From contig JBMZIJ010000001.1 of the NCBI GenBank assembly GCA_049616955.1, positions 66,797 to 130,796 of the forward strand: 64,000 bases of DNA, read 5' to 3'. The stretch comes from Candidatus Poseidoniaceae archaeon. GTDB lineage: Archaea; Thermoplasmatota; Poseidoniia; Poseidoniales; Poseidoniaceae. The position numbers and the translations under genes were made by a program. How positions within the stretch are numbered: position 1 is the stretch's first letter; every line of letters begins with the position of its first letter. The notes beneath the pieces are model-generated. The model saw only the letters and a list, made by a program, of their open reading frames with translations. It ran no database searches and was not told where the DNA came from. Positions 8,953 through 55,807 of this stretch are shown piece by piece.

Positions 8953-8994
8953 AGTTTTCCAACCTAACGACGGTTCTTGAAGATGTTTCTACTC

Positions 8995-16473: not shown

Positions 16474-16493
16474 TCTTGAACGAAATTCGAAGC

Positions 16494-19400
16494 ATGACCA
16501 AGAATATCGCTCCTCCTCGCAGGCAATGGAGTTATGAACGACCAACCAATGAACAGAACATGGCCAAAGGCTCGCCCATGGTTGCTTCTGTTTTGATATT
16601 GATGATGCTTGCATCGACATGCATGGTTGCTTCGACACAAGCAGACTCAAGCGTTCTTGATGAAATTGATATCATGCATACTGCTGTTAATCCTGACAAC
16701 AACAAGACGTATCACCTCCTTTCTGCTTCCTCTTGGGAGGATGCGGCGTTCAAGGCGAGGTCACTTGATGGATACTTGACAACAATCGATGATGATGATG
16801 AGAACACGTGGGTGTTTGACACCTTCGCAAGCTTTGGAGATCAAAGCCGCCATTTGTGGATTGGATTGAACGATGTTCAAGATGAAGGCATTTACCGATG
16901 GCACGATGGTACACCATTCCTGTACCGTAATTGGGGTGTCGACCAACCAACCGGAGGAGATGATTCGGACTACGTACACATTGCTTCAACCAACATGGGC
17001 AACATTGATCCTCAAACATGGAACGATTTGGAAAACAATCCAGAATACTTCCCCGTCTACGGTGTTGTTGAAGTTGGCCCCGGTGCAGATTTTTCTCTCC
17101 GATTTGACGGTGTTGAAGACCATATTGTCATCGACCACGACGAGGGTTTGATCGCAAATGGGACGCTGAACATTGAAGCGACCATCAAAGCAAGCAGTCT
17201 TGATGGGATTCGATTTATCACCATGAAAGGGGATTATGGGTGGGGCATGTACCTCTCCAACGGCGCCATTGGATACGCATCCGAATACAGTCTCTCCAAG
17301 CATCCGACATCCAACATGAGCATTACTGAAGACACCTGGCATACGATTGGTGTTCAACTCATTGAAGGAGTTGGAGGATTTTTCACCATTGATGGTGTTC
17401 CTGCAGGAAATATTTCTGCCGAGGATGCCAACATTCCAGAAGGAGATTTTGGCTCCAATGACTGTTTCACCTCAGGCGACGCATGCGATGAATTGTACAT
17501 CGCTCGCATGGGTGCTGGTTGCGACTGCTATCACTTCGAAGGAATCATTGATGATCTTACCATCTCATTTGTTGAAGAGAACATGTGGGAGCCTGTCAGT
17601 CGATGGACGTTCTGGGAAGGTGAAGGAGGCGATACAGGGGATGCATTGAACGATGCTACAATGAATCGTATCGGTATCATTCATGGTGCAGATTGGGTCA
17701 TGCCAGATGGTTCCATCGTTGCGCAAGCTGTCGAACTACCCAACGATGAATTTCTTGTCTTGGAAAACATTCAGGAAGGCGATACCCTCCTCTTCTATGC
17801 AGAACTTGATGAATATACATTCATGACCGACATTGCCATTTATTCCTGGTCCGAACTGTTTTACGACGATTGGGAGTATGATGACGAAGAGAACATGCTC
17901 TTCGACGCATATGTTGGTTACGATCGCATACCTGCGCCTTGGGATTACGATATGGAGTTGACCAGTTACTGGGGTTCAGTCTTCAATTCATGGACATGGC
18001 CAGAATACGACATCATGTGGTACTCCATCGTTGCCAAGCAAGACATCGAGGAATTGGAAATCATCGCCTCTTGGGAAGTTGCAGAAGAGCCACCAAGTCT
18101 TGATGAAATGACCCAGTTGTTCAATGGTGTTCCTATCACCTCACAAACTGTAGAATCCGATCGTGATAGTTGGGATGCGGCTTTGGAATACTATTACGTC
18201 AATGTCACCGATTCTCTCACTGAATTGAAGATTGAAACGTACGGAGGAAAAGGAAACATCAACCTCATTCTTTCATCGGGAGGACCAATCGACCCCAATT
18301 ACTACTACTATTACGAAGAACCATACTTTGATGAGTATTCTGAGGGAGAATACCAGCAAAGCAACATTGCTTGGTCTACCAATGATGGTAATGGTGAAGA
18401 AGTCAATCTGTTTGATGTTGAACCCGGAATCTACTATGTTACAGCCTTCACCTATCGCAAGTCGTCTGATTTCACGATCGTTGCTGATTTCACCTATGCA
18501 CCAGCCAATGCAGATCCATCAACCGCTGTCGAATTGCAACCTGGTGTTGCATATGGACCGATGAGCGGTTACAACGGTCTTGACCAATATTTCTTCATTG
18601 AAGTACCAACTGGAACCGAGCGACTTGAGGTTGACCTCGACGGTGGCTTTGGTGAAGCCACGCTCCACATGCGCTATGAGAACACACCTACAGCAAGCGA
18701 AGCAGATCACCATTCAGGAGCGCCGGGTGCAGGTGACAAGATTGGATTTAACAACCCAACGCCAGGCAAGTGGCAGATTCTCCTCGACTCTGAAAGTGTG
18801 TTTAGCGGAGTATCGATCACAGCGTCCTTCGAAGACCTCTACATTTGGGAATACGATGGTACGCCGATTGAGTTGTTCAATGATGAAGACGTTGACGGAC
18901 TCTCTGCACCTGCTGGAGAAGAACTCTATTTCTATGTCGATCTGGAGTCTCGTGCAGAAGAACTCATCATCACCACGTATGGTGGTGAAGGCTCCCTATA
19001 CATCACCGCTGATGGTGAAGTGGACTACGGTGATTTCTTTGGATTCGATGATTTCGGTGAGTTTGAATTCCTCGAAGAGGACATCTTTGAAGAGGAATTC
19101 ACATCGTACGGTGAAGGAACCTATCAAGAGTTGTACATCTACTCACCTGCAGCAGGACGATTCGATATCACAGTTCTTGCAGAAGACGATTTTTCCGATG
19201 TTTCCATCGTCGCCTATTGGAAGGAAGACACTCGACCGGGGCCAGATCCAGAACCTCCACTTGTTATCGATCCTGAAGACATCTATGCTTGCGATGATGG
19301 ACTCGAAGAATTCTTCATGGATGCTGACCTCAACGGAAATGGCTTGTTGAATGCTGATGAATTCCGACGAACTGGGGCACCAGAAGAAACACAATTCTCG

Positions 19401-20180
19401 GACGTTGATACAAATGAAGATGGGATGATAGAATTCAACGAGATTGTTGCCATTGCTTGCACGTGTGAGAATGAACTTTATTCGATGATTGATCAACTTC
19501 CGTACAAGACATCCACTGAATTCTTTGATTCTTTGGCGTTGAAGAACGCATACGATTCAAAGGCATTGGACGTGAACAAGGATGATTTCGTAACTCATGA
19601 TGAACTTGAGAAGGCTGTTCAAACATGCAAAACGACGTTCAATCCATTCGATAGCGATGGCGACGGCGTTCCCGATATTGACGATCAGTTCCCGAACGAC
19701 CCGAGCGAATCGAAGGATGCGGATGGCGATGGAATCGGAGACAATGCTGACTTTGCACCAAGTGTAGCCAACGATATGCTCTATGGCGCAGGTGGTGCCA
19801 TCTTCATCGTCCTCATTGGTCTACTCGTTCTCTTCGCTCGAGGAGGTGGGGGTTCTGGTCAAAGCATGGATCAGGAATGGAACAAAACAGATGCGTTCGC
19901 TGAACAGATGTTGAACATGAGCAATAATCCTACCGAACCTTCACCGATTCCAAATGCACCACAACTGGATGTTACTAGCGATAGGCTACCAGATTATGCG
20001 CCTTCAAGCGTACCAATCTATGATTTTGGGCAAGCTAATCTCGAAACGGATTCTGACCAACCCGCATCAAGTTTGATGGGAATGATGGATTCAAACGGTC
20101 GAGAGCACATTGAATATCCACCGAACAGTGGACGACTATGGCATCGTGATGATCCTGATTCGCCTTGGACTAAGGACTAA
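16494..20180 (+). CDS. Large secreted/membrane-anchored adhesin-like protein (C-type lectin, LamG-like, PPC-like, EF-hand and thrombospondin type-3 modules; C-proximal TM)
   Basis: Signal-like 'MVASVLILMMLASTCMVASTQA'. CTLD 'HLWIGLNDVQDEGIYRWHDGTPFLYRNWGVDQPTGG...TWNDLEN'. Three pre-peptidase-C-terminal-like modules ('YYYVNVTDSLTELKIETYGGKGNINLIL', 'YFFIEVPTGTERLEVDLDGGFGEATLHM', 'LYFYVDLESRAEELIITTYGGEGSLYI'). EF-hand pair 'DADLNGNGLLNADEF'/'DVDTNEDGMIEFNEI'. TSP3 'DSDGDGVPDIDDQFPNDPSESKDADGDGIGDNAD'. TM 'GAIFIVLIGLLVLFA' plus a ~170-aa tail. Alternative start at 16560; the track ORF starts at a TTG at 16476. Confidence 0.8.
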   Translation: MTKNIAPPRRQWSYERPTNEQNMAKGSPMVASVLILMMLASTCMVASTQADSSVLDEIDIMHTAVNPDNNKTYHLLSASSWEDAAFKARSLDGYLTTIDDDDENTWVFDTFASFGDQSRHLWIGLNDVQDEGIYRWHDGTPFLYRNWGVDQPTGGDDSDYVHIASTNMGNIDPQTWNDLENNPEYFPVYGVVEVGPGADFSLRFDGVEDHIVIDHDEGLIANGTLNIEATIKASSLDGIRFITMKGDYGWGMYLSNGAIGYASEYSLSKHPTSNMSITEDTWHTIGVQLIEGVGGFFTIDGVPAGNISAEDANIPEGDFGSNDCFTSGDACDELYIARMGAGCDCYHFEGIIDDLTISFVEENMWEPVSRWTFWEGEGGDTGDALNDATMNRIGIIHGADWVMPDGSIVAQAVELPNDEFLVLENIQEGDTLLFYAELDEYTFMTDIAIYSWSELFYDDWEYDDEENMLFDAYVGYDRIPAPWDYDMELTSYWGSVFNSWTWPEYDIMWYSIVAKQDIEELEIIASWEVAEEPPSLDEMTQLFNGVPITSQTVESDRDSWDAALEYYYVNVTDSLTELKIETYGGKGNINLILSSGGPIDPNYYYYYEEPYFDEYSEGEYQQSNIAWSTNDGNGEEVNLFDVEPGIYYVTAFTYRKSSDFTIVADFTYAPANADPSTAVELQPGVAYGPMSGYNGLDQYFFIEVPTGTERLEVDLDGGFGEATLHMRYENTPTASEADHHSGAPGAGDKIGFNNPTPGKWQILLDSESVFSGVSITASFEDLYIWEYDGTPIELFNDEDVDGLSAPAGEELYFYVDLESRAEELIITTYGGEGSLYITADGEVDYGDFFGFDDFGEFEFLEEDIFEEEFTSYGEGTYQELYIYSPAAGRFDITVLAEDDFSDVSIVAYWKEDTRPGPDPEPPLVIDPEDIYACDDGLEEFFMDADLNGNGLLNADEFRRTGAPEETQFSDVDTNEDGMIEFNEIVAIACTCENELYSMIDQLPYKTSTEFFDSLALKNAYDSKALDVNKDDFVTHDELEKAVQTCKTTFNPFDSDGDGVPDIDDQFPNDPSESKDADGDGIGDNADFAPSVANDMLYGAGGAIFIVLIGLLVLFARGGGGSGQSMDQEWNKTDAFAEQMLNMSNNPTEPSPIPNAPQLDVTSDRLPDYAPSSVPIYDFGQANLETDSDQPASSLMGMMDSNGREHIEYPPNSGRLWHRDDPDSPWTKD

Positions 20181-21785: not shown

Positions 21786-22988
21786 ATGGGATGGCTAGGA
21801 CTCGATGATACTGATTCTCTCAAAGGAGGCTGTACTACAGAAGTCCTCTACCGCCTCATTCGATCTCTTCCGCAACATGTTGGAGTTGGACAAGCACGGC
21901 TTGTTCGTCTCTGGCCATTCGCTCGACGACGAACTCGTGGTAATGCCGCAGTGGCTGTTGAATTGACAACCACAGATGAACCCGCATTGCTCGAATTCCT
22001 CGATGAGTATTGGTTCAACCATCTTCTGCCTCTCAAGGGCACAGTAGAAGTGAGTGAACACAGTGAACGAGAACAGTATCCTTCAGATCCAGGAATGGTA
22101 TGGTTCAGAGATAAAATCAATGATGAAGATTTCTATAGAAGAGGTCTAAGGGAAGAGTTATTTCTTGAACAATTGCCAATTCCAAAACAATCTTGGGGAG
22201 GTCATGGCAGAATTGGAGCTACACTGGCAGTCCTATGGCCTGCGGAGAGGAAAACCTTCGAAGCCATTGCATGGAGAGAATCCACCAACAAGAGTCCACG
22301 ACAATTGGATCAAAATGCAGTGAAACACATAGAAGAAATGGCAGAGTCATTCCTATGTCGCGATGATCGACTTGGCACGAGTATGTTGGCGCCAAGGGGT
22401 GCCTCTCCCGTTCTGTTTGGGATTCGCACCTGGACGCAGGACGCTGCAAACGAAGCACTGAAACTTCTTCTTGATGCACCCGGGACTGAAGAAACTTCAG
22501 GTTCGTTGGTGTTTGAAACAAATCATGCAACCAACGACCATTTGGACGAACCAATCGAGATTTGTGTTGAGAAGGTTGAGATTCTCAAGGGCGGTCACAC
22601 GCTGATTCATGCCGAGAAGCATCGTTTTGTGGCCTTCAAGGAATCAGGCGAAATTGCAAAAATTTGTCAACAATTGCAACCAAATGACATCCTTGAGTGC
22701 AATGGGCTCATGTCACCAGATCATTCAATCCACATCGAAGTTTTACGGATTCGACACCTCGTCGCCGATCAGAATCGCCCTTCTTGCCCCACATGTCAAA
22801 AAGCCCTTTCATCCATGGGAGCGGATCAGGGGCTTCGATGCAAAAAGTGTGGATTTAAGTCTGAAGATGAATGGGTAGAAACACATCGCAATTTGCCCCT
22901 GAACCAGTGGATTCAACCTCCTGCCTCATCACGTCGGCATTTGGCGAAACCCCTCGATGAGTCGCCAACAGTGCAAAACAATCTTTAG
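21786..22988 (+). CDS. tiaS: tRNA(Ile2) 2-agmatinylcytidine synthetase TiaS
   Basis: N-terminal 'MGWLGLDDTDSLKGGCTTEV' and a C-terminal zinc ribbon 'CPTCQKALSSMGADQGLRCKKCG'; 400 aa. Confidence 0.75.
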   Translation: MGWLGLDDTDSLKGGCTTEVLYRLIRSLPQHVGVGQARLVRLWPFARRRTRGNAAVAVELTTTDEPALLEFLDEYWFNHLLPLKGTVEVSEHSEREQYPSDPGMVWFRDKINDEDFYRRGLREELFLEQLPIPKQSWGGHGRIGATLAVLWPAERKTFEAIAWRESTNKSPRQLDQNAVKHIEEMAESFLCRDDRLGTSMLAPRGASPVLFGIRTWTQDAANEALKLLLDAPGTEETSGSLVFETNHATNDHLDEPIEICVEKVEILKGGHTLIHAEKHRFVAFKESGEIAKICQQLQPNDILECNGLMSPDHSIHIEVLRIRHLVADQNRPSCPTCQKALSSMGADQGLRCKKCGFKSEDEWVETHRNLPLNQWIQPPASSRRHLAKPLDESPTVQNNL

Positions 22989-33515: not shown

Positions 33516-33944
33516 TTCTATAGAATGAACCCAGTTGCTCAAGTCAATGACTTCTTGCACATCCCAATGGGTAAATCGTGGTAAATCTGTGAACCATTGG
33601 ACAGTGGAAACATGTTGATCGTTGACGTTCCACATCGGTTCTGAAAATGGTTCATCCTCGTCATTGACTTGAATCAATCCGACCCAACCCTTCGGATAGT
33701 ACGTCTTGTTCCAAGCGATAAGAGTGCCAGTACCTCCGACTTCTTCCATCAATTCTCGATGCAAAGCTTGCTCTGGACGCTCGCCTTGTTCAACATGACC
33801 ACCTGGGAATTCCCATCCTCGCTCAGGATGGCAAACCATGAGGATAGAACCTGAATGCAATACCGACTTTGGATTGCTCTTCGGAACAACATAGGCTAAG
33901 ACGAATGTTGGAACCATACGAACACCTACATGAGCGAACGACAT
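33501..33944 (-). CDS. NUDIX hydrolase
   Basis: Nudix box 'GGHVEQGERPEQALHRELMEEVG'; 147 aa. Confidence 0.85.
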   Translation of the reverse strand: MSFAHVGVRMVPTFVLAYVVPKSNPKSVLHSGSILMVCHPERGWEFPGGHVEQGERPEQALHRELMEEVGGTGTLIAWNKTYYPKGWVGLIQVNDEDEPFSEPMWNVNDQHVSTVQWFTDLPRFTHWDVQEVIDLSNWVHSIESGHE

Positions 33945-46510: not shown

Positions 46511-47527
46511 ATGGCTGGGTTTGGTGGCATTCGGAAAGGAAGAAAAGAAGCGGCTGATAATCTATCGATTCAGGAAGACGGAGATTGCGCTCGATGCGGA
46601 GGAGAAAGTCAGCCATCCACAATGGAAGGCTATCTTTCATGCAGTCGTTGTTCTTACGAGTGGGCGGATCCATCCTATGTTTCTCGAAAGGTCAGAGGAC
46701 CTCCTCCAAACCATCGACGTGATTCTGAATTAATTCAAGAATTCAAAGCAGAAATGGAACGAGGTGACCTCAAGGGTGTCTTGGGGGTTGATTCGAACCT
46801 TTCCGACGAACAGGAACAATCACTCAAGCGATTAGAAGATAAGTGGATGAGTGGGATGCAAGGACATTACAACGCAGCATCTGAAGATCGAAAGCCACTC
46901 ATGATTAGTTTTGATGACGACGATAATCTCGTTTCAACCGAAGTTGCTGCACTGACCATTGTCTCCAATGGATTCGATGGTGGTGAAGAAATTCGACTCG
47001 AATATCCAGGCATTGGTACCGAATTCTATGCTTACAACGAGCGCAGCCCAACGGGATGGAAACGTGGTCGGAACAGCGAGGATACAGCACGCTCCATTAC
47101 CAATGTTATCAACCGCTCATCGCGTCTTGTCTATGCCAATCTCGAAGGAAATCGAATTTCGTTTGAACTACGAGATGACAAGTTGAAAGCCGAATCGCTT
47201 GTTCTCTTCGTTGATGACCCTGGTGGTCAAGACATTGTCGCAGAAAAAGGCGGTGTCATCCTTGACTTCCGAGATGTCAATGTCTTGGATGATTACCGCA
47301 ACGTTATCGCTCTGGTTCTCGAAGATGGTATCATCTCACCAAGCGAAGATCAGATGATGTGGGTCATGCGCCAACAACTCGGGGTCACTGAAGAGCAGCA
47401 TGTTGCACTCGTTCAGGAAATCTTCGGCGGCAATGCACTCAAGGAATGTCCAAATTGCAATCAGATGGCAGAACTCTATCCTGAGTACTCAGCATGGTAT
47501 TGTCAACCTTGTGAAAGTTGGCTCTAA
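46511..47527 (+). CDS. Acidic protein bracketed by two zinc ribbons, unknown function
   Basis: N-terminal 'CARCGGESQPSTMEGYLSCSRCSYEW' and C-terminal 'CPNCNQMAELYPEYSAWYCQPCESW', both CxxC-x14-CxxC. 338 aa. Confidence 0.6.
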   Translation: MAGFGGIRKGRKEAADNLSIQEDGDCARCGGESQPSTMEGYLSCSRCSYEWADPSYVSRKVRGPPPNHRRDSELIQEFKAEMERGDLKGVLGVDSNLSDEQEQSLKRLEDKWMSGMQGHYNAASEDRKPLMISFDDDDNLVSTEVAALTIVSNGFDGGEEIRLEYPGIGTEFYAYNERSPTGWKRGRNSEDTARSITNVINRSSRLVYANLEGNRISFELRDDKLKAESLVLFVDDPGGQDIVAEKGGVILDFRDVNVLDDYRNVIALVLEDGIISPSEDQMMWVMRQQLGVTEEQHVALVQEIFGGNALKECPNCNQMAELYPEYSAWYCQPCESWL

Positions 47528-47543
47528 ACCTGATTCTATAGAA

Positions 47544-47550
47544 TTTTTTT
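47544..47550 (+). terminator. Oligo-T tract (T7) downstream of the double zinc-ribbon gene
   Basis: 'GAATTTTTTTG' lies 17 nt after the stop at 47527. Archaeal RNA polymerase commonly terminates at oligo-T. Positional inference only. Confidence 0.35.
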
Positions 47551-47635
47551 GTTCCTTAATTACGAGGAAAAATTGCGAACGTGAGCGAGGGATGCTTCAT
47601 AAAGTGGACGGTGTTCCGTAGAACTGGCGAACGCT

Positions 47636-48661
47636 ATGGCAGAAGATGTATTGTATATTGGAATTGATTTGGGAACGTTTCGTTCGGTTATGGTCTCCTC
47701 AGGGAACCACGAAGAAGAAGAGCTCACAGTGATTGGTACTCCAAAGGATCCAATTGCTCGCAACTTCCTCAAGCGAGATGTTCTCTTTGGCGAGGATGCG
47801 TTGAAGAACAGGCTAGCACTGAATCTCTTCCGTCCCCTCGAACTCGGTGTCATTAAGGATACTGTTGAAGACCGCCAATTCATCGCTCACTTCATTACCC
47901 ACCTGATTGGTCTAGCAGACCCAGAAGAACACGACCGTGTTGTCGCCGTTATCGGTGCACCTGCAGAAGCCAGCCACGTCGACAAGACCGCTATCTTCGA
48001 TGCAGCTGCAGGAAGCGTCAACGCTGCCATGATCATCTCTGAGCCGTTTGCTGTTGCTTACGCTCTTGACATGATTGAGCACACACTCGTCATCGACATC
48101 GGTGCAGGAACAACGGATCTTTGCCGTGTTTACGGTACTATCCCAGGACCAGGTGACCAAATGCACACTGGATACGCTGGTGACTATGTTGATGCTCAAA
48201 TCATCAAAGAAGTTCAATCCAAGTACAACGGTGCTCAGATTACCAAAGACATGGCTCGACGATGGAAGGAACAGTACTCCTTCGTCTCCACATCCACTCC
48301 GGATGACCCAGTCATGGTCGACTTCTCAATTGAAGGAAAGGCAATGAATCTCGATATCACGGATTGCATTCAGCGAGCTTGTGAGTCGATTGTTGACCCA
48401 ATCGTTGAGAATGTGAAACAACTCATTGCAGACTCCAACCCAGAGTACCACGACCAGTTCCGTCGAAACATGGTTCTCGCTGGTGGCGGATCCGGTATCC
48501 GTGGACTTGGTGCACTTATCGAGCGTCGACTCTCCGACATGGGCGATGTGAACGTTCACGTTGTTGATGACCCTGTTCGACTCGGTGCAATGGGTGGCCT
48601 TCGCTTGGCTATGGAAGTTCCAGAAGACATGTGGAAGAACCTCACCCTTGCATCTCGCTGA
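47636..48661 (+). CDS. Actin-like ATPase, MamK/MreB family (MamK-like)
   Basis: Phosphate-1 'LYIGIDLGTFRS', 'VAVIGAPAEAS', 'IISEPFAVAYAL', phosphate-2 'LVIDIGAGTTDL', adenosine 'MVLAGGGSGIRGL'. MamK-like blocks 'GTIPGPGDQ', 'AGDYVD', 'KEQYSFV', 'NPEY', 'GGLRLAMEVPEDMW'. Confidence 0.8.
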   Translation: MAEDVLYIGIDLGTFRSVMVSSGNHEEEELTVIGTPKDPIARNFLKRDVLFGEDALKNRLALNLFRPLELGVIKDTVEDRQFIAHFITHLIGLADPEEHDRVVAVIGAPAEASHVDKTAIFDAAAGSVNAAMIISEPFAVAYALDMIEHTLVIDIGAGTTDLCRVYGTIPGPGDQMHTGYAGDYVDAQIIKEVQSKYNGAQITKDMARRWKEQYSFVSTSTPDDPVMVDFSIEGKAMNLDITDCIQRACESIVDPIVENVKQLIADSNPEYHDQFRRNMVLAGGGSGIRGLGALIERRLSDMGDVNVHVVDDPVRLGAMGGLRLAMEVPEDMWKNLTLASR

Positions 48662-48670
48662 GTTGTTCAC

Positions 48671-49375
48671 ATGAACAAAGGGCTCGCCATTTCAGGTGGA
48701 GTTCTGATTCTGTTGTCTTTGTTCAGTTTGGTGTTCTCACTTGTCGTGATGGACTCGTACGAGCCCAACAGTGATAACATTCTGCATGATACGGAAACCG
48801 ACGGTATGGTCTTCAATTTCGATGGTTCATCGAGCTGGCTTGAAGTCTATGCAAAAGGCGAAGTCGATTGTTACAGTTATTCCATTTCAGTAACGGATGA
48901 CATGTTTGAGTATTTTTACCCAAATTGTGATGCTGGAACGGAGATTGCTGGCTATACATACCTTGGTGATCTTGAAATCTACGATGCTGGAAGTTACAAC
49001 ATCGATGCTGAAGGCAATGTCGTCATCGTTGATGCAGACGACCTCATCGGCCCATTGTTTGCATTCTGTGGTGGTGGAGTTTGTTGCCTCTTGGGCGTTA
49101 TTCTTTTGATTGTTGGATTCTCAAGAGGTGGAAAGGCTCCACAGATGGTTGTTTACCAACAACCGGATGGAACCATCTATCAACCCAACCAAACGACAAT
49201 CCAGCAATACATCCCTCCTTCCGCAGAACAACCAAATCAGCAACAAATTGTTTCTCAGGATCAAGTCCAGCAATCGCAGAACATTCCTCCGGCATTTGAT
49301 GAAGATCCTAACAAAGCCCCTGTGTATCAAACAGATTTTGATGGATTTTCATTTGAACACAAAAAATCAGATTGA
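48671..49375 (+). CDS. Two-TM membrane protein with Gln/Pro-rich C-terminal tail
   Basis: TM1 'ISGGVLILLSLFSLVFSLVV', a ~100-aa Cys-containing domain and TM2 'LFAFCGGGVCCLLGVILLIVGF'. The tail reads 'QQPDGTIYQPNQTTIQQYIPPSAEQPNQQQIVSQDQVQQSQNIPP...'. Nine nt after the actin-like gene. Confidence 0.65.
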   Translation: MNKGLAISGGVLILLSLFSLVFSLVVMDSYEPNSDNILHDTETDGMVFNFDGSSSWLEVYAKGEVDCYSYSISVTDDMFEYFYPNCDAGTEIAGYTYLGDLEIYDAGSYNIDAEGNVVIVDADDLIGPLFAFCGGGVCCLLGVILLIVGFSRGGKAPQMVVYQQPDGTIYQPNQTTIQQYIPPSAEQPNQQQIVSQDQVQQSQNIPPAFDEDPNKAPVYQTDFDGFSFEHKKSD

Positions 49376-49382
49376 TGATAGC

Positions 49383-50090
49383 ATGATTACGAAACAATCG
49401 AGAGTAGTGATCTTGACAGGCGCTGGAATCAGTGCCGAATCTGGGATTCGAACATTTCGAGATTCAGACGGATTGTGGGAGAACCATCGAATCGAAGAAG
49501 TTGCAACACCAGAAGGTTGGAGAGAGAATCCAGAACTCGTTTGGAATTTTTACCAGCAACGACGTCGGCAACTGTTGAACGTTGAACCAAATCAAGGGCA
49601 TTTGGCACTCGAAGAACTTGAAAACCACTTGGAAAACTTTCTCTTAGTCACGCAAAATGTGGATGATTTGCATGAACGTGCTGGTTCAAAAAATCTGATT
49701 CACATGCATGGAGAACTTGCAAAACTTCGTTGTGAAGAGTGCCACCATGTTGAGACGTTGATGGATGATCAACACCTCTTGGAAGCGTTCCTCTATTGTA
49801 GCCAGTGCGATGGACGTTTGCGCCCCCACATCGTTTGGTTCAATGAGATGCCTATGCAGATGCCTGAAATTGAAAAAGCGCTTTCGGAATGCGATGTGTT
49901 CGTGGCAATTGGAACAAGTGGACATGTCTATCCCGCAGCCAACTTTCTCCATATGGCACGAAATCATGGCGCCTATACCATTGGCGTCAATCTCGATCCA
50001 CCAGAGAACGTGTACTTTTTTGATGAGTTTATTCAAGGTAAAGCAGGAGAAGTACTCCCCTTCCTTGTTCAAAAATGGATCCACGAGTAG
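49383..50090 (+). CDS. cobB: NAD-dependent protein deacylase, class III sirtuin (CobB/Sir2)
   Basis: 'VVILTGAGISAESGIRTFRDSDGLW', 'FYQQRRR' (YxxR), 'TQNVDDLHERAG', Zn site 'CEEC...CSQC', 'IGTSGHVYPAA'. Start at the ATG at 49383. Confidence 0.85.
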   Translation: MITKQSRVVILTGAGISAESGIRTFRDSDGLWENHRIEEVATPEGWRENPELVWNFYQQRRRQLLNVEPNQGHLALEELENHLENFLLVTQNVDDLHERAGSKNLIHMHGELAKLRCEECHHVETLMDDQHLLEAFLYCSQCDGRLRPHIVWFNEMPMQMPEIEKALSECDVFVAIGTSGHVYPAANFLHMARNHGAYTIGVNLDPPENVYFFDEFIQGKAGEVLPFLVQKWIHE

Positions 50091-50159
50091 AGTGAAAAGT
50101 ACTCGCCAATCTAAGGGTTGAAAGGGAATCTTTTTGCAAGGCCTGTTCGAGTTGACAAC

Positions 50160-52322
50160 ATGCGAATGCGACCACTGCTCACCTTGCTTTGTGTCGGCAT
50201 GATGGTCTGTTTGTTCTCTTCCCCATTTGTTGCCGCAGAAAGTGAAGAGGAAGATCAGATGATTCGTATCATTATGCTCCCTCCTGAAGCAGAAGCAACA
50301 GGCATGTATGTCGACGAAAACGGGCGTTTCTTTGTCAACGCAATGCATCCTGACCCGGACAATTACGATGCCACAATTGGCGTCATCAATGGTGTGGATT
50401 GGAACAACCTTCCAGAAGACGTCCCATCGCTTTCTTCATCGAGCAGTGCTTCAGACATTTGGCATGGTATTCGAACCGGTTATGGTGACTACCAGGTTCT
50501 TCTGCAAGCAGGCGATTCAATGAATGATGGTACAATCGCTGGAGGAATTTATTCTGCACACGATGGTCAGCAAATTTTGTTGAGTCAAAAACCCGATTAC
50601 AATGCATTTATTCCAACAAATTCCGATGGAACCGCTGGATATCTCTACACTGCATGGGAGGATCGTCCAGCAGGCATCAGTCAAGTCGGACTCGAATGGA
50701 ATCCATCTTCAAACCAATGGGATGTTCTCTCAAAGCATATGTTGAATCTATCAGAGATCAATGGAGCTTGGGTTCTCTGTTTTGGAAGCGTCAGTCCTTG
50801 GGGTACACCGTTGTTCTCCGAAGAATTGTACTTTGATGATACAGAGGATTGGAACAACGATGGATATCGATATCATTCCGACCAACTCCGTCTAGAGCAG
50901 TATCTTGGGCATTACCCAAATCCATACGATTACGGTTACATCATCGAGATGGAACAAGCGACGTCGACAACACCTGAATTGGTACGTCACCTTACAATGG
51001 GTCGTTTTTCACATGAGAATGCTTTGGTCATGCCCGATAACAAGACGGTCTATTTGACCGACGACGGCTATGATACAGTCTTCTTCAAGTTCGAAGCAGA
51101 TGTGGCTGGTGATTTGAGTGAAGGTACGCTTTATGCTGCAATAGTTACACAGGATTCCACATACGATTCTGCTTCCACTGGATTTGACGTCGAATGGTTG
51201 GAACTTGGATCTTCATCAAATGAAGAAATCCAAGGTTGGATTGATGATTACGATGGCATCACAACTGCTGATTACATCCAGGGAGAAAACTCCTACATTA
51301 CTGATGAAGACATTAACAATTGGGCAGAGGATTATTTGGATCAGGATTTGAACAACGATGGAACCATTGGTTACGCTTTGGATGACCGGGTAGCATTCCT
51401 TGAAACCCGTAAAGCAGCTGCAGCAATAGGCGCTACAGATGAGTGGAACAAAATGGAAGGGGTTGGGTTTAATCCAAACGCTCCGGACAATCTGTACCTC
51501 GCCATGTCCAGTATCGACAATGCAATGACCGACGGACAAGGTGATATCGATGTTTCCGACAACCTTTGCGGTATTGTCTACCAGATGACGATGAACGATT
51601 TGTGGAATGTCAACAGGATTCACCCCGCCATCATCGGAGGACCATACATTTCCTCAAATCAATACGAATGTGACATAAACAACCTCGCTGGACCGGATAA
51701 TCTGGTTGTCCTTGATGATGGAAGTGTCCTCGTTGGTGAGGACACTCGTCGCCATGAGAGCAACATGGTTTGGCTATGGAGAGAATACATTCCTCCTGTT
51801 ATCGAAGTTGATGAAGAGATTCAATTGAACCATCTCCGTCCTTCAAACACACCTGAGGATTTGGATGCAGCGTGGACGTATGAATACCAAGCCGAAGTCA
51901 AGGATCTTGCCCAAGATATGACCTACACTGCTATTATCGTTGCCAAGAACATGAGCAGTGGCGAATGGAATGGAATATGGTGGTGGGAAGACATTCAATC
52001 GAGTGGTGAACAATACGATTTGATGCTGTCAATGAACCGTGGATGTTATTCCATTGAGACATCATTGTACGAGAAAGAAGATTTGAATTCAGACCCAGGT
52101 ACGGCCGTTGTGTTATCCTCCAATCAATCGGAATTGGTCGTTGGGGATGGTACATGTTTGAATGGAGTGTATACAGAAGCTGTCAAAACCGTCACTACTG
52201 AAGAAAATCAAACGAAACAAGAGAGTGAGTCGACTCCAGGGGTTGGGGTGCTGTCAACCATTCTAACCATGACCGTAGCCATGATGGTTGCTTTAAGGAA
52301 GAATCGAACAACGGGGATTTGA
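50160..52322 (+). CDS. Secreted PhoX/DUF839-family beta-propeller protein (putative alkaline phosphatase) with PGF-CTERM-like anchor
   Basis: Signal peptide 'MRMRPLLTLLCVGMMVCLFSSPFVAAES'. PhoX-like blocks 'GSVSPWGTPLFSEE', 'MGRFSHENALVMPDNKTVYLTDDG', 'GPDNLVVLDDGSVLVGEDT'. Family call is from remembered motifs. Confidence 0.6.
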   Translation: MRMRPLLTLLCVGMMVCLFSSPFVAAESEEEDQMIRIIMLPPEAEATGMYVDENGRFFVNAMHPDPDNYDATIGVINGVDWNNLPEDVPSLSSSSSASDIWHGIRTGYGDYQVLLQAGDSMNDGTIAGGIYSAHDGQQILLSQKPDYNAFIPTNSDGTAGYLYTAWEDRPAGISQVGLEWNPSSNQWDVLSKHMLNLSEINGAWVLCFGSVSPWGTPLFSEELYFDDTEDWNNDGYRYHSDQLRLEQYLGHYPNPYDYGYIIEMEQATSTTPELVRHLTMGRFSHENALVMPDNKTVYLTDDGYDTVFFKFEADVAGDLSEGTLYAAIVTQDSTYDSASTGFDVEWLELGSSSNEEIQGWIDDYDGITTADYIQGENSYITDEDINNWAEDYLDQDLNNDGTIGYALDDRVAFLETRKAAAAIGATDEWNKMEGVGFNPNAPDNLYLAMSSIDNAMTDGQGDIDVSDNLCGIVYQMTMNDLWNVNRIHPAIIGGPYISSNQYECDINNLAGPDNLVVLDDGSVLVGEDTRRHESNMVWLWREYIPPVIEVDEEIQLNHLRPSNTPEDLDAAWTYEYQAEVKDLAQDMTYTAIIVAKNMSSGEWNGIWWWEDIQSSGEQYDLMLSMNRGCYSIETSLYEKEDLNSDPGTAVVLSSNQSELVVGDGTCLNGVYTEAVKTVTTEENQTKQESESTPGVGVLSTILTMTVAMMVALRKNRTTGI
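52233..52319 (+). other. PGF-CTERM-like archaeosortase sorting signal (variant 'PGV')
   Basis: A Thr/Ser/Glu-rich linker 'TEENQTKQESES' is followed by 'TPGVGVLSTILTMTVAMMVALRKNRTTGI', i.e. PG(F/V), a hydrophobic helix and a basic end at the extreme C-terminus. Confidence 0.55.
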
Positions 52323-52357
52323 ATCAAGTTCAATAGGCATCGCCTTCTGAAGCACAT

Positions 52358-53887
52358 GTGGGAACCGATTCGTTTACTGAACTGAAGTGGTTCAATCACT
52401 TTTTGCAAGGTACACCTGGCGATCAAGAAATTGGTGGAAAGCCGAGGCAAGTTCCTCATGCATGTTGGTCTCGTGTTAAACCTACTCAGGTTCCAGATCC
52501 AGTCCTTCGTTTGTGGTCTAAAGAAATGGCAACGGAATTAAACGTCAACCCGGATGCAGCGGACATTCTTGGCGGGAATCGAATCGTCGATGGAATGGAT
52601 CCCTATGCACAACGGTATGGTGGACACCAATTCGGTAATTGGGCGAATCAACTTGGAGATGGACGTGCAATTACATTAGGTGAGGTTGACACTGGAAGGG
52701 AACGTCTCGAGTTGCAATTGAAAGGGCCAGGGATAACACCATATTCACGATTTGCGGATGGCAAGGCAGTACTCCGATCATCGATTCGTGAGTTTTTGTG
52801 CAGCGAAGCAATGCATCATCTCGGAATCCCAACCACGCGGGCACTCTCGCTGGTCACAACTGGAGAGGAGGTGGTTCGAGATGTCATGTACGATGGGAAT
52901 CCTGCTCCGGAACAGGGAGCCATCGTCTGTCGAATCGCTCCAAGTTTCCTCAGATTTGGTTCGTACCAAATCCACTCAATGAATGGGGATCTCAACACGT
53001 TGCGAACCTTGGTTGATTTTTCGGTCAAGCAACACTTCCCAAACCATACGACCACCAGTGATGAAGGATTAGTGAATTGGTTGAAGCACGTTGGTGAAGA
53101 AACTGCTCACATGATCTCGGAATGGATGCGGGTTGGATTTGTTCATGGTGTCATGAACACCGACAACATGTCCATCCATGGATTGACCATCGATTATGGT
53201 CCGTACGGTTGGATTGAAGATTTTAATCCAAATTGGACTCCAAACACCACTGACGCACGAACAGGAAGGTACAGATTTGGCCAACAGGCACAGATTGGTG
53301 CCTGGAATTTTGCTCGTTTGTTGGAATCGATTTCCCCACTTATGGAAGAACCAGAGCGGTTGTATGAGTGTCTCGACTCTTACTACACTGCATATGAACT
53401 TGCAAACAATCGAATGTGGTCGAAGAAACTCGGTTTCGATGAATTCAAAGAAGGTGATGAACTTCTTGTCAAGGAACTCACTGCAAACCTTCAGTTGGTC
53501 GAAACGGACATGACTATTTTCTTCAGATTACTCTCGAAACTTGAAGAACCTGTCATTGATCATCTTTCGTTCGCATTTTATGATGCAACAACCATTCCAA
53601 ATGATGAATGGAATCAATGGTTGCAGAAATGGTGGAATCGAACAAACGGTCTACCAAACCGAGAAGCAATGCTTGCATCAAATCCAAAGTTCGTCCTTCG
53701 TAACTGGATGGCACAACTTGCGATTGATGCTGCAGAGAAAGAGGATTATTCCATTGCTGAATCACTGTACGAATTACTCAAGAAGCCATACGACGAGCAA
53801 ATGGAACATCAAGAACAATGGTTCCAAAAACGACCTGAGTGGGCACGACATCGTGTTGGATGCTCGATGCTCTCGTGCTCAAGTTGA
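52358..53887 (+). CDS. selO: Protein adenylyltransferase SelO (YdiU/UPF0061 pseudokinase-fold AMPylase)
   Basis: 'YGGHQFGNWANQLGDGRAITLGE', 'LQLKGPGITPYSRFADGKAVLRSSIREFLCSEAMHHLGIPTTRALSLV', 'GFVHGVMNTDNMSIHGLTIDYGPYGW' and the C-terminal 'SCSS'. GTG start. Confidence 0.9.
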   Translation: MGTDSFTELKWFNHFLQGTPGDQEIGGKPRQVPHACWSRVKPTQVPDPVLRLWSKEMATELNVNPDAADILGGNRIVDGMDPYAQRYGGHQFGNWANQLGDGRAITLGEVDTGRERLELQLKGPGITPYSRFADGKAVLRSSIREFLCSEAMHHLGIPTTRALSLVTTGEEVVRDVMYDGNPAPEQGAIVCRIAPSFLRFGSYQIHSMNGDLNTLRTLVDFSVKQHFPNHTTTSDEGLVNWLKHVGEETAHMISEWMRVGFVHGVMNTDNMSIHGLTIDYGPYGWIEDFNPNWTPNTTDARTGRYRFGQQAQIGAWNFARLLESISPLMEEPERLYECLDSYYTAYELANNRMWSKKLGFDEFKEGDELLVKELTANLQLVETDMTIFFRLLSKLEEPVIDHLSFAFYDATTIPNDEWNQWLQKWWNRTNGLPNREAMLASNPKFVLRNWMAQLAIDAAEKEDYSIAESLYELLKKPYDEQMEHQEQWFQKRPEWARHRVGCSMLSCSS

Positions 53888-53890
53888 ACC

Positions 53891-54595
53891 TTATTCCTCT
53901 TCCCAACCATGACGTTTTGCAAGTTCCTTACTGACAAGCGGTTTGTTGCAGTGAGGACATGAATCCGAAGGTGAAAGAAGATCGGGTCGGATGGCGAGGA
54001 CTGCCATACAACTTGGACAAGCTGCTAACATTTCTCCATCCTCGAGATCGGCCTCAGGTGTTGGAATAAACGTTGTATACCCTTGTCTATAGAGTGGAGA
54101 GAAATGATATCGAACACGTTGAAATGAACTGTAAGCCGCATAACCCATAATCAGCATGAACAGAAGACCACCCGCTGCTCCCGAAATGACAGCGAATAAA
54201 TTGACCAAAAAGAAGAGGAAGAAAATAACCGATGCAAAGGCAATAATGAGTGCTGCTGGCCAATATGCCCAACTACGTCGAGAACGATACGAGAACCACG
54301 TCGAGGTTGTTATGAACAAAGGTATAGCCCAGATGAGTATTGCGACTCGTCCAAAATAGTCCTGTGCGAGTGTTGAAAATTCCAATGCTAACAGAACGAT
54401 GATGAGGCTATCAATCGCTAGAATCAGGGACGTGCTTCGATGTGTTTGATCGAAGATGGCTGAAAGCGTTGCAGAAGCACGCTGCCCCCCCGAACCAGCA
54501 AGGACAATATCGTCCCCTCGATTCCCTGCCATACATCGACGAATCATCGCCCGCTCATGAAGGCTTGTGAACAGCGAAGAAGTCTTGATGGTCAA
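53891..54595 (-). CDS. Multi-pass membrane protein with C-terminal zinc ribbon
   Basis: 234 aa with ~4 hydrophobic helices, then 'CPSCMAVLAIRPDLLSPSDSCPHC'. No family recognised. Confidence 0.55.
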   Translation of the reverse strand: MTIKTSSLFTSLHERAMIRRCMAGNRGDDIVLAGSGGQRASATLSAIFDQTHRSTSLILAIDSLIIVLLALEFSTLAQDYFGRVAILIWAIPLFITTSTWFSYRSRRSWAYWPAALIIAFASVIFFLFFLVNLFAVISGAAGGLLFMLIMGYAAYSSFQRVRYHFSPLYRQGYTTFIPTPEADLEDGEMLAACPSCMAVLAIRPDLLSPSDSCPHCNKPLVSKELAKRHGWEEE

Positions 54596-54610
54596 TACGC
54601 TCGCAAGGTC

Positions 54611-55807
54611 ATGAGCGTCCGTGATACCGACGTTGAGTTGCGTGGCTCCAGCCTTGCGGGCAAACGTATTCTCGTTGGCGTCACAGGTGGAATCGCAGCA
54701 GTTGATTCTGTTCGGCTTCTACGTGAAATGCGCAGGCATGGTGCGGAAATGCTGGTGATTATGACGGAAAGTGCACGACGTGTCATTACACCACTCGCCA
54801 TTGAATGGGCAAGCCAATGCCAGGTCATTACTGATTGGGATGGCGACATGAAACAACTTGAGGATGTGGATGCGATTCTTGTAGCTCCAGCAACACGGAA
54901 CACAATTGCCGCTCACTTGCATGGCATGCAACAAGGACCACTGTTAATGGCACTCAGTGCTGCACGATCACGAAACACCCACGTACTGATGGTTCCAAGC
55001 ATGCATGCAGACCTTGCCGATGATCCGGTCACCGATGACATCGTTGACCGTTTGCGTGAAGAAGGCATTGATGTGATGTGGGGTGACCTTGAGGAAGGAA
55101 AACGAAAGACGCCAAGTCATGAACACATCGTTGCCAGGTTTGCTCATGGAATCAATTCAAGATTATCACATCGAAAGAGCGTCGTGATTACACTTGGTGG
55201 GACTTACTCACCAATCGATGATGTACGTGGCGTGCAGAACACAAGTTCAGGAGCAACAGGTTATGCCCTTGCAGATGAGTTGTATCGATATGGACACGAT
55301 GTGACATGTGTTGTTGGAAGAACAAGTATTGCCCAGCCCACATGGTTACCCCTTTGCATTAAGGCTGAACAGCCCGATGAAATGCTTGCAGAATTGAAAG
55401 CGCTAGCAAACGATGAGATTCATGCATGGGTTCACGCCGCTGCTGTTCTTGATTACGTTGTTGAAGCGCCTGCTGAAGGAAAGTTAGCCAGTCAACAAGG
55501 GCCGCTACAAGTCAATCTCGTTGAAGGTGCAAAACACATTCAAGAATTGAAGGAAAAGGTTCGAGGTTCAACACGAATTGGATTCAAATTAGAAACTGGA
55601 ATCAAGCAACGAGATTTAATTCACAGGGCAACAGCTCAAATCGAACATTCTGAAATGACCGCTGTCGTTGCAAATCGATTGGAAGATCTAGGTGACCAAT
55701 CAAAACCGCGTGGATACCTTGTCGACAAGCAAGGAAGTCATTTTGTCCTTCAGACACAAGATGACCTCAATGATGCATTGCGAACCATCATCGAACGAGG
55801 CGATTGA
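54611..55807 (+). CDS. coaBC: Bifunctional phosphopantothenoylcysteine decarboxylase / phosphopantothenate-cysteine ligase (CoaBC)
   Basis: Flavoprotein part 'GKRILVGVTGGIAAVDSVRLLREMRRHG', 'VAPATRNTIA'. Ligase part 'ITLGGTYSPIDDVRGVQNTSSG', 'AAAVLDY'. Start at the ATG at 54611. Confidence 0.85.
   Translation: MSVRDTDVELRGSSLAGKRILVGVTGGIAAVDSVRLLREMRRHGAEMLVIMTESARRVITPLAIEWASQCQVITDWDGDMKQLEDVDAILVAPATRNTIAAHLHGMQQGPLLMALSAARSRNTHVLMVPSMHADLADDPVTDDIVDRLREEGIDVMWGDLEEGKRKTPSHEHIVARFAHGINSRLSHRKSVVITLGGTYSPIDDVRGVQNTSSGATGYALADELYRYGHDVTCVVGRTSIAQPTWLPLCIKAEQPDEMLAELKALANDEIHAWVHAAAVLDYVVEAPAEGKLASQQGPLQVNLVEGAKHIQELKEKVRGSTRIGFKLETGIKQRDLIHRATAQIEHSEMTAVVANRLEDLGDQSKPRGYLVDKQGSHFVLQTQDDLNDALRTIIERGD

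Follow-up and report, generated by a model that had tools for sequence, protein, structure and literature searches.

A 64-kb stretch of DNA from a Candidatus Poseidoniaceae archaeon encodes an actin-family ATPase that, judged from its sequence, is MamK-like, and 9 nucleotides (nt) downstream of it begins the gene for a membrane protein that is an orphan of one lineage. Hereafter, "the window" refers to this whole stretch and not to the feature under study. At a probability of roughly 70%, we favor a joint reading of the two genes, in which the actin is a core filament protein of the MamK type that is present across the order Poseidoniales, whereas the membrane protein is a later, clade-specific insertion that is at most an accessory to it. 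The first-pass annotation of the window had proposed instead that the two genes form a cytoskeletal module in which the membrane protein serves as an adaptor between filament and membrane.

The actin is MamK-like

Both open reading frames (ORFs) of the pair lie where the first-pass annotation had placed them (Table 1), and the twelve actin-fold motifs that it quoted are all present in the first ORF, at residues 6, 34, 105, 134, 152, 167, 181, 211, 268, 280, 307, and 320. In MamK, residues E143 and D161 are functionally important, as are the DxG of the phosphate-1 motif, the DxGxGT of the phosphate-2 motif, and the GGG of the adenosine motif. The ATPase site of the window actin is intact, with GIDLGT (residues 9-14) at phosphate-1, DIGAGTTD at phosphate-2, and AGGGS (residues 282-286) at the adenosine motif, and the equivalents of E143 and D161 are E136 (in SEPF) and D154 (in DIGAGTTD). 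The protein is predicted to hydrolyze ATP and to form filaments.

The NCBIfam model for MamK (NF040964) matches the actin with 359.5 bits (E 1.5e-107) over model positions 1-331 of 335, a score that is under the curated cut-off of 400 bits and that puts the protein at the edge of the curated family. MamK is the best-scoring family in these profile searches. Other models give 216 bits for BeeR (cut-off 530), 95.2 bits for the MreB model PRK13927 (cut-off 293), 84.8 bits for the MreB model TIGR00904 (cut-off 365.75), 66 bits for NCBIfam salactin (cut-off 400; salactin models overall span 58-66 bits), and 32 bits for Pfam volactin (cut-off 35). The best solved structures are likewise the MamK chains 5ljw, 5jyg, and 5ljv (E ~1e-75, and 1.2e-75 for 5ljw), which align with residues 2-336 and are followed by BeeR (E 6e-43) and MreB (E 2e-15). 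Over aligned columns, M. magneticum MamK shares 38% of its residues with the window actin, BeeR 33%, and T. maritima MreB 28%. These MamK and PDB matches, together with 3923 database homologs at E<=1e-10, are the basis for regarding the ORF as a real gene and not a chance one. The results agree with the first-pass annotation, which had likened the protein to MamK rather than to MreB, ParM, or crenactin, and the scores also argue against a salactin-like protein.

Homologs of the actin are labelled 'rod shape-determining protein MreB' by the Joint Genome Institute (JGI) and NCBI. An ordinary MreB that determines rod shape would agree with this naming and with the match to Pfam MreB_Mbl (95.7 bits, over the gathering threshold of 27). 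However, MreB_Mbl is a broad model and the only one for MreB that is passed, as the NCBIfam MreB models reach 85-95 bits against cut-offs of 293-366. In addition, the structure matches and identities given above favor MamK over MreB, MreB falls outside the group formed by the window actin and MamK-like proteins in the tree described below, and no peptidoglycan-elongasome genes were found among the neighbors scanned. We therefore consider an ordinary MreB very unlikely, and the MreB name used in public sources is, on the profile evidence, wrong.

Weak matches exist to a 'partition protein' family in PHROG (E 4.6e-8) and, weaker still, to HSP70 (E 1e-4). They suggest two further identities, namely an actin that segregates a mobile element (ParM/Alp-like) or a non-polymerizing ATPase of the acetate and sugar kinase/Hsp70/actin (ASKHA) superfamily that resembles Hsp70 or a sugar kinase. 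However, these matches are tens of orders of magnitude below the MamK match, every genome has the gene in a conserved chromosomal setting of housekeeping genes, and a ParR- or centromere-like partner was not seen. Either identity seems extremely unlikely.

When 1.84 billion cluster representatives were searched exhaustively, 1277 relatives of the window actin were recovered. The nearest one outside the Marine Group II (MGII; Poseidoniales) clade is P0337, a protein of 335 amino acids with 46% identity. Other near relatives include Nitrospira proteins named 'MamK family', Gemmatimonadota proteins, and fusion proteins of 520-1230 amino acids whose MamK-like domain is preceded by a coiled-coil and disordered N-terminal extension (44-48% identity). 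A MamK-like cluster from ANME-2 (anaerobic methanotrophic archaea) and Methanosarcinales is 41% identical. When scored with the MamK model, these relatives reach 425 (Nitrospira), 412 (Gemmatimonadota), 414 (a fusion protein of KSB1), 371 (ANME-2), and 330 (P0337). In a neighbor-joining (NJ) tree with 200 bootstraps, the MGII actins are monophyletic at 100% and group with P0337 at 88%. The NJ topology puts this clade within the radiation of MamK-like actins and leaves BeeR and MreB out, but bootstrap support for that separation is only 54%, and the deep nodes in general are weak (52-60%).

The fusion proteins, which are the closest relatives among bacteria, have a characteristic layout. Proteins P0334-P0349 consist of an N-terminal coiled coil, a long disordered linker rich in K, S, and P, and a C-terminal MamK-like domain. 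Only two of their clusters carry names, both from candidate division KSB1, and a YIKKQPV motif is present in the linkers of 4 of 14 fusion proteins.

The actin is conserved throughout the Poseidoniales

The named homologs and the 80 species-level genome loci that we compared all come from Poseidoniales metagenome-assembled genomes (MAGs), in keeping with the archaeal host recognized in the first-pass annotation. Across these 80 genomes the actin is 89-100% identical, and in the most divergent (MGIIb-type) lineages, one of which is labelled Thalassarchaeaceae, identity is still 76-81%. In the same 80 loci, the neighboring thiolase is 70-98% and KptA is 72-100% identical. Outside the window's own clade, actin identity (89-94%) is above that of thiolase (~70-81%), KptA (72-79%), and up338 (66-74%), an orphan protein encoded immediately upstream of the actin. 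Therefore, the actin is the most conserved gene of its neighborhood. Such strong constraint would fit a polymer whose entire surface is under selection.

Contigs with a 99%-identical archaeal actin have also been deposited in MAGs labelled 'uncultured Rhodobiaceae bacterium' (L002) and 'Salipiger bermudensis' (L027). These bacterial bin labels are probably due to binning contamination.

The membrane gene came with a lineage-specific insertion

The distribution of the membrane gene is far narrower than that of the actin. It is present in 26 of the 27 informative loci whose actin is at least 96% identical to that of the window, and the other locus (L007) has lost it. The gene is missing from ~48 other informative species-level GTDB loci, from the MGIIb-type loci, and from loci L168-L173. 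Its family amounts to 90 clusters, compared with 274 for up338 and thousands for the actin, and even inside its sub-clade the protein is fast-evolving (38-82% identity). Each sampled member of the family sits between the actin and a gene for a Sir2-family deacetylase.

Outside this sub-clade, the widespread gene order is up338, actin, a convergent gene for a multi-transmembrane (multi-TM) zinc-ribbon protein, and CoaBC, and this order is taken as ancestral. In 28 GTDB loci, as well as in L168-L173, the actin stop codon directly adjoins a gene for a homolog of the convergent zinc-ribbon protein (29-43% identity), and CoaBC always comes next. In the window, the convergent gene is shifted 5.2 kb off the actin by a block that carries the membrane gene along with genes for Sir2, a PhoX-family phosphatase, and SelO (Table 1). 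Because the ancestral order has the actin directly before the zinc-ribbon gene and CoaBC, this block represents an insertion. Close relatives differ in what the block contains: in L018-L026 it is limited to the membrane gene and Sir2, L008 is without PhoX, L015 is without Sir2, and L007 is the locus without the membrane gene.

Several side observations concern the genes of this region. Sir2 accompanies the membrane gene within the block in most relatives. The C-terminus of PhoX (52230-52322) reads ...ESTPGVGVLSTILTMTVAMMVALRKNRTTGI, which resembles an anchor signal of the PGF-CTERM/archaeosortase type. In the ancestral arrangement, zinc-ribbon proteins are encoded on either side of the actin, namely up338 and the homolog of the convergent gene.

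Wherever the pair is present (26 loci), actin and membrane gene are 9-15 nt apart. However, half of the same-strand gaps in the window (15 of 30) do not exceed 15 nt, and the unrelated Sir2 gene also starts 9 nt past the membrane gene, so the 9-nt gap noted in the first-pass annotation is uninformative. The adjacency of actin and membrane gene is a lineage-specific juxtaposition made by insertion and does not constitute a conserved module. The first-pass annotation had itself named a lack of conservation of the membrane gene beside actin orthologs as grounds for refuting the module, and outside the one sub-clade this is what the loci show. The membrane gene is nevertheless probably co-transcribed with the actin, given the short distance.

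In the explanation that we favor, an actin of the MamK/BeeR/saltatorellin radiation would serve a core cytoskeletal function in Poseidoniales that is unrelated to magnetosomes. No magnetosome-type genes (mam, mms, or mad-type domains) were found among the window neighbors scanned, as the first-pass annotation had already remarked. Candidate roles for the actin might include cell shape, division, or the positioning of DNA or other cargo. The membrane gene would have reached one Poseidoniaceae sub-clade in a variable block (Sir2, with or without PhoX and SelO) that came to lie between the actin and its ancestral neighbors. Its product would display a small acidic beta domain on the outer side of the membrane and keep its disordered Q/P-rich tail, which has two conserved linear motifs, in the cytoplasm, and might act as an accessory, clade-specific factor at most rather than as a defining partner of the filament.

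Architecture of the membrane protein

The membrane ORF is a real gene, as its family comprises the 90 homologous clusters mentioned above and has 38 invariant columns in a 26-member alignment (A1). The protein has no relative among Pfam, NCBIfam, PHROG, or PDB profiles, and its predicted fold has no match at E<=0.001 in a Foldseek comparison with the PDB (best match E 0.06). An AlphaFold2 (AF2) model built with 26 sequences predicts a TM helix, a Cys-containing ectodomain, a second TM helix, and a disordered tail, which is the arrangement that the first-pass annotation had described. The core of the ectodomain (residues 37-121) is confidently modelled as beta structure, with a predicted local distance difference test (pLDDT) score of ~90. 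This domain carries a net charge of -19, its two cysteines (Cys67 and Cys86) are invariant, and it is probably disulfide-bonded. The cysteines of the protein are at positions 67, 86, 133, 138, and 139, and the second TM helix has the motif CGGGVCC. Lys and Arg residues flank the cytoplasmic ends of both TM helices, and by the positive-inside rule both termini are therefore predicted to be cytoplasmic.

The Q/P-rich tail had been estimated at ~85 amino acids from the sequence 'SRGGK'. This sequence begins at residue 151, and the tail counted from there has 84 amino acids, of which 20% are Gln and 12% are Pro. Residues 152-234 contain the peptide ...DFDGFSFEHKKSD. The tail is more than a low-complexity region, as it has two conserved motifs separated by a variable Q-rich spacer. 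The first is a juxtamembrane block whose invariant columns in A1 are P157, Q158, P165, G167, Q171, T175, T176, Q179, Y180, and P182. The second is the C-terminal peptide FSFEHK, a candidate short linear docking motif that does not vary among all 26 aligned members of the family and takes the form FRFEHK or YSFEHK in the most divergent orthologs.

We considered whether either motif is used more widely. FSFEHK was not found in other coding sequences in 1.8 Mb of Poseidoniales DNA; it is unique to the membrane-protein family in this dataset, and the idea that it is a docking motif common to several proteins was rejected. A pattern Y-x-x-Q-P common to the linkers of the KSB1 fusion proteins (YIKKQPV) and the membrane tail (YQQPDG) was also discarded, since only 4 of 14 fusions have it and the Tyr in the tail is not conserved.

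The first-pass annotation drew attention to a similar 'F[AS]RGG' sequence in a 1234-aa adhesin and speculated that surface proteins are coupled to the filament. The sequence FARGG is indeed found after the TM anchor of that protein, at 19833-19847. Its proposed link to the membrane protein did not hold up, because RGG is not conserved in the membrane-protein family (relatives have STGKK, SVGSK, or VSGRK) and the adhesin tail is without the conserved motifs of the family. This surface protein (16476-20180) combines C-type lectin, PPC, and EF-hand-like domains, and its C-terminal TM anchor leads into ~130 amino acids of cytoplasmic tail, in which no motif of the membrane protein was detected.

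Could the membrane protein tether the filament?

RodZ has a cytoplasmic helix-turn-helix (HTH) domain, one TM helix, and a periplasmic C-terminal domain, whereas MamJ is a soluble acidic protein. The first-pass annotation had compared the topology of the membrane protein with these two adaptors, but the order of TM helix, ectodomain, TM helix, and tail differs from both, and McaA is the nearer precedent (PMC13170167). With McaA in mind, the pair could be a dedicated membrane-tethered filament module in which the tail, for example through FSFEHK, docks on the actin filament as McaA does on MamK. The uniform 9-15 nt spacing would suit this possibility, as would the location of all sampled membrane-family members next to the actin and the predicted cytoplasmic, disordered tail with its invariant C-terminal peptide and conserved juxtamembrane block. 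Moreover, no obvious membrane-binding amphipathic segment was recognized at the N- or C-terminus of the actin by inspection, and McaA and McaB both bind MamK directly (PMC13170167).

However, several observations dampen our enthusiasm for such a module. When its synteny was examined in related MAGs, the pair was found in one sub-clade only, whereas the actin is order-wide and little changed where the membrane gene is missing. In addition, the membrane gene came with an inserted block and is linked just as tightly to Sir2, it has been lost from L007, and short gaps are normal in the genome of the window. The membrane protein also has no homology to RodZ, MamJ, McaA, or McaB, and has no Pfam domain. 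Thus, we regard a dedicated module as doubtful. Tethering of the filament by the tail, taken on its own from the sequence features, likewise seems improbable.

A broader version of this proposal also deserves mention. In one Poseidoniaceae lineage, the recently acquired orphan might be a minimal McaA-like tether in which a peptide of the form aromatic-x-F-E-H-K docks on the MamK-type filament and thereby couples the beta domain to it, and the Poseidoniales cytoskeleton would then include two MamK-type lineages, each with its own partner. If true, the tether would be the first link between membrane and actin to be described in a planktonic euryarchaeon, but we consider the combined scheme rather improbable.

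Several points nonetheless weigh against our preferred reading of an order-wide filament actin with a late, accessory membrane protein. On the side of the actin, these are the MamK score below the curated cut-off and the low bootstrap values of the deep nodes. On the side of the membrane protein, the gene directly follows the actin even where the rest of the block varies, as in L015, which is without Sir2. An invariant C-terminal peptide and a constant position after the actin would fit a functional tie between the two proteins. Furthermore, a promoter for the membrane gene may reside inside the actin coding region, and very divergent analogs of the membrane protein elsewhere would escape sequence searches.

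Upstream elements and flanking genes

The window is 94% coding. Its housekeeping genes include those for aEF-2, Lhr helicase, a class II aminoacyl-tRNA synthetase, TrkAH, a thiolase with a DUF35-type protein, KptA, and CoaBC. The intergenic region between up338 and the actin contains two conserved non-coding elements (Table 1).

The element nearer to the actin, GGGATGCTTCATAAAGTGG, is located about 29-47 nt before the actin ATG and is a candidate promoter of the TATA/BRE type (BRE, transcription factor B recognition element). Its core, GG.A..TTCATAA(A/G)GTG, could be aligned in every one of the 19 sequences that were taken from across the order. The sequence TTCATAARG occurs a single time in the 64-kb window, and the idea of a generic promoter box was therefore rejected. 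Because archaeal TATA boxes are located ~26 nt before the transcription start, the element can be read as a promoter that belongs to the actin itself and is followed by a short leader. Thus, the actin appears to begin its own transcription unit from this conserved element.

The second element is a perfect 10-bp palindrome, TTCTATAGAA (47534-47543), followed by a run of seven T nucleotides (47544-47550). There are 34 exact copies of the palindrome in 0.79 Mb of related loci, compared with ~1 expected, and nearly all are at the homologous position, but the T-run is not conserved across loci. A role as terminator, operator, or TATA element is conceivable. Exact copies occur three times in the window (47534-47543, 33516-33525, and 22131-22140), and two of these are no more than 7 nt past the stop codon of a plus-strand gene.

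The upstream gene codes for up338, an orphan whose two terminal zinc ribbons enclose an alpha/beta domain (AF2 pLDDT 72) that has no fold match in the PDB at E<=0.001 by Foldseek. The family consists of 274 clusters, all of Poseidoniales type, and has no Pfam domain or PHROG match; a PDB profile search returned only an L37ae-type zinc ribbon (E 0.002). JGI annotates family members as 'ribosomal protein L37AE/L43A'. This annotation is probably wrong, since only the N-terminal zinc ribbon resembles L37ae and the rest of the protein is unrelated. We also considered whether a homolog of up338 is fused to the actin domain in the N-terminal extensions (180-890 aa) of the KSB1 proteins, but the hhalign probability is below 1% and the extensions are coiled coil and disordered K/S/P-rich sequence.

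The gene for up338 adjoins the actin in 78 of 78 loci that reach upstream (66-98% identity), as well as in the MGIIb-type loci, which raises the possibility that the real partners of the actin are the order-wide flanking genes: up338, the convergent multi-TM zinc-ribbon protein, or both. In agreement with this view, up338 is restricted to Poseidoniales, as is the clade of window-type actins, the convergent membrane gene lies directly against the end of the actin gene in the 28 loci and L168-L173 noted above, and the two conserved elements lie between up338 and the actin. However, the whole region (KptA, thiolase, up338, actin, and CoaBC) is syntenic across the order, which makes the adjacency unspecific. 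The actin has its own promoter-like element, and a T-run follows up338 in the window. Neither flanking protein has a fold or family that points to a cytoskeletal function, and in 80 loci of the closest relative of the actin (the P0337 type) both genes are missing from the vicinity. Overall, we consider it unlikely that the flanking genes encode the partners of the actin.

The P0337-type actins represent a second MamK-like lineage, found at L081-L160 on marine contigs with archaeal markers, where the cluster of a neighboring gene is named Poseidoniaceae. In 69 of 69 informative loci, the P0337-type actin is followed ~100 nt downstream by a gene for a soluble coiled-coil protein of 426 amino acids; in L088, for example, the actin is at 7995-9008 and the coiled-coil partner at 9101-10381. 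This pairing is far tighter than any pairing of the window actin. The coiled-coil partner (P0513) has no detectable homology to the KSB1 extension or to up338.

Table 1. Features discussed in the text, in positions of the 64-kb window (position 1 is its first letter)
Feature	Position	Strand	Remarks
up338, 338-aa orphan	46511..47527	+	N-terminal zinc ribbon C26, C29, C44, C47; C-terminal zinc ribbon C313, C316, C331, C334
Palindrome TTCTATAGAA and T7 run	47534..47550	.	6 nt past the upstream stop codon
Non-coding element GGGATGCTTCATAAAGTGG	47589..47607	+	candidate promoter
MamK-like actin-family ATPase, 341 aa	47636..48661	+	start ATG
Lineage-specific orphan membrane protein, 234 aa	48671..49375	+	start ATG; 9 nt after the actin
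First TM helix	48677-48754	+	residues 3-28; AF2 helix
Acidic Cys-containing beta ectodomain	48755-49036	+	residues 29-122; AF2
Cys-rich second TM helix	49037-49123	+	residues 123-151; AF2 helix
Disordered cytoplasmic tail (predicted)	49124-49372	+	residues 152-234; AF2
Juxtamembrane tail block KAPQ-vvvYQQPDGt-YQPNQTT-QQYiPP	49133..49222	+	residues 155-184; alignment A1
C-terminal peptide FSFEHK	49346..49363	+	residues 226-231; candidate docking motif
Clade-specific inserted block	48671..53887	+	membrane gene, Sir2, PhoX, SelO (Pfam)
Sir2-family deacetylase	49385-50090	+	starts 9 nt past the membrane gene
PhoX-family phosphatase	50118-52322	+	Pfam; start also placed at about 50160
SelO	52358-53887	+	Pfam
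Multi-TM protein with C-terminal CPSC...CPHC zinc ribbon	53891..54595	-	ancestral convergent downstream neighbor of the actin
CoaBC	54557-55807		after the 53891-54595 gene

Comparison with known systems

Poseidoniales (MGII) are among the most abundant archaea of the surface ocean and are uncultured, and to our knowledge nothing is known of their cell biology. Within the searchable library that our literature search covered, no paper was found that ties MGII or Poseidoniales to an MreB- or MamK-type actin. Identification of a MamK-type protein provides a concrete handle on the cytoskeleton of these organisms that can be tested in vitro. The membrane gene, in turn, serves as a caution that a 9-nt gap in a 94%-coding genome is no evidence of a functional module.

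Pairs such as MreB-RodZ and ParM-ParR resemble the proposed module in that a filament protein and an adaptor are encoded nearby. ParR is a soluble DNA-binding protein, and neither the topology nor the sequence of RodZ or ParR matches the membrane protein. Pfam, NCBIfam, PHROG, and PDB-profile searches of the membrane protein gave no match to the RodZ HTH, the MamJ acidic repeats, or the VWA domain and '530 region' of McaA. McaA combines an extracytoplasmic domain, a TM segment, and a long cytoplasmic part through which it contacts MamK directly, and McaB also binds MamK directly (PMC13170167). The membrane protein is predicted to resemble McaA in having an ectodomain, TM helices, and a cytoplasmic tail. 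However, the two are not homologous in sequence or domains, the membrane protein has neither a VWA domain nor a coiled coil, and two TM helices flank its ectodomain.

Among archaea, the window actin is comparable to salactin, volactin, crenactin, archaeal MreB, and the MamK-like proteins of ANME-2/Methanosarcinales, in that all are actin-fold cytoskeletal proteins. Salactin was reported to be closest to MamK (PMC10746226). The window actin nonetheless matches the salactin and volactin models with only 58-66 and 32 bits, respectively, and belongs to its own Poseidoniales clade at 100% bootstrap.

The likeness to MamK itself (5LJW, 5JYG, 5LJV; NF040964) extends to end-to-end alignment over 335 residues, ~38% identity, the nucleotide motifs, and the equivalents of E143 and D161. 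The differences are the score below the curated cut-off, the archaeal host, and the lack of magnetosome genes in the window, where no MamJ, MamY, or Mca partners were found. MamK-like proteins that polymerize in organisms without magnetosomes have been described in two bacterial groups, as BeeR in Verrucomicrobiota (PDB 8R2N; PMC11929497) and as saltatorellin in Saltatorellota (bioRxiv 10.1101/817700). Both show that the family functions beyond magnetotaxis. BeeR is more distant from the window actin (216 bits, 33% identity), which also lacks the disordered N-terminal extension of BeeR. Thus, MamK-like actins outside magnetotactic bacteria are already known, and the Poseidoniales actin is a further such case. 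It adds evidence for roles of this family outside magnetotaxis from an archaeal protein that is closer to MamK proper than BeeR is.

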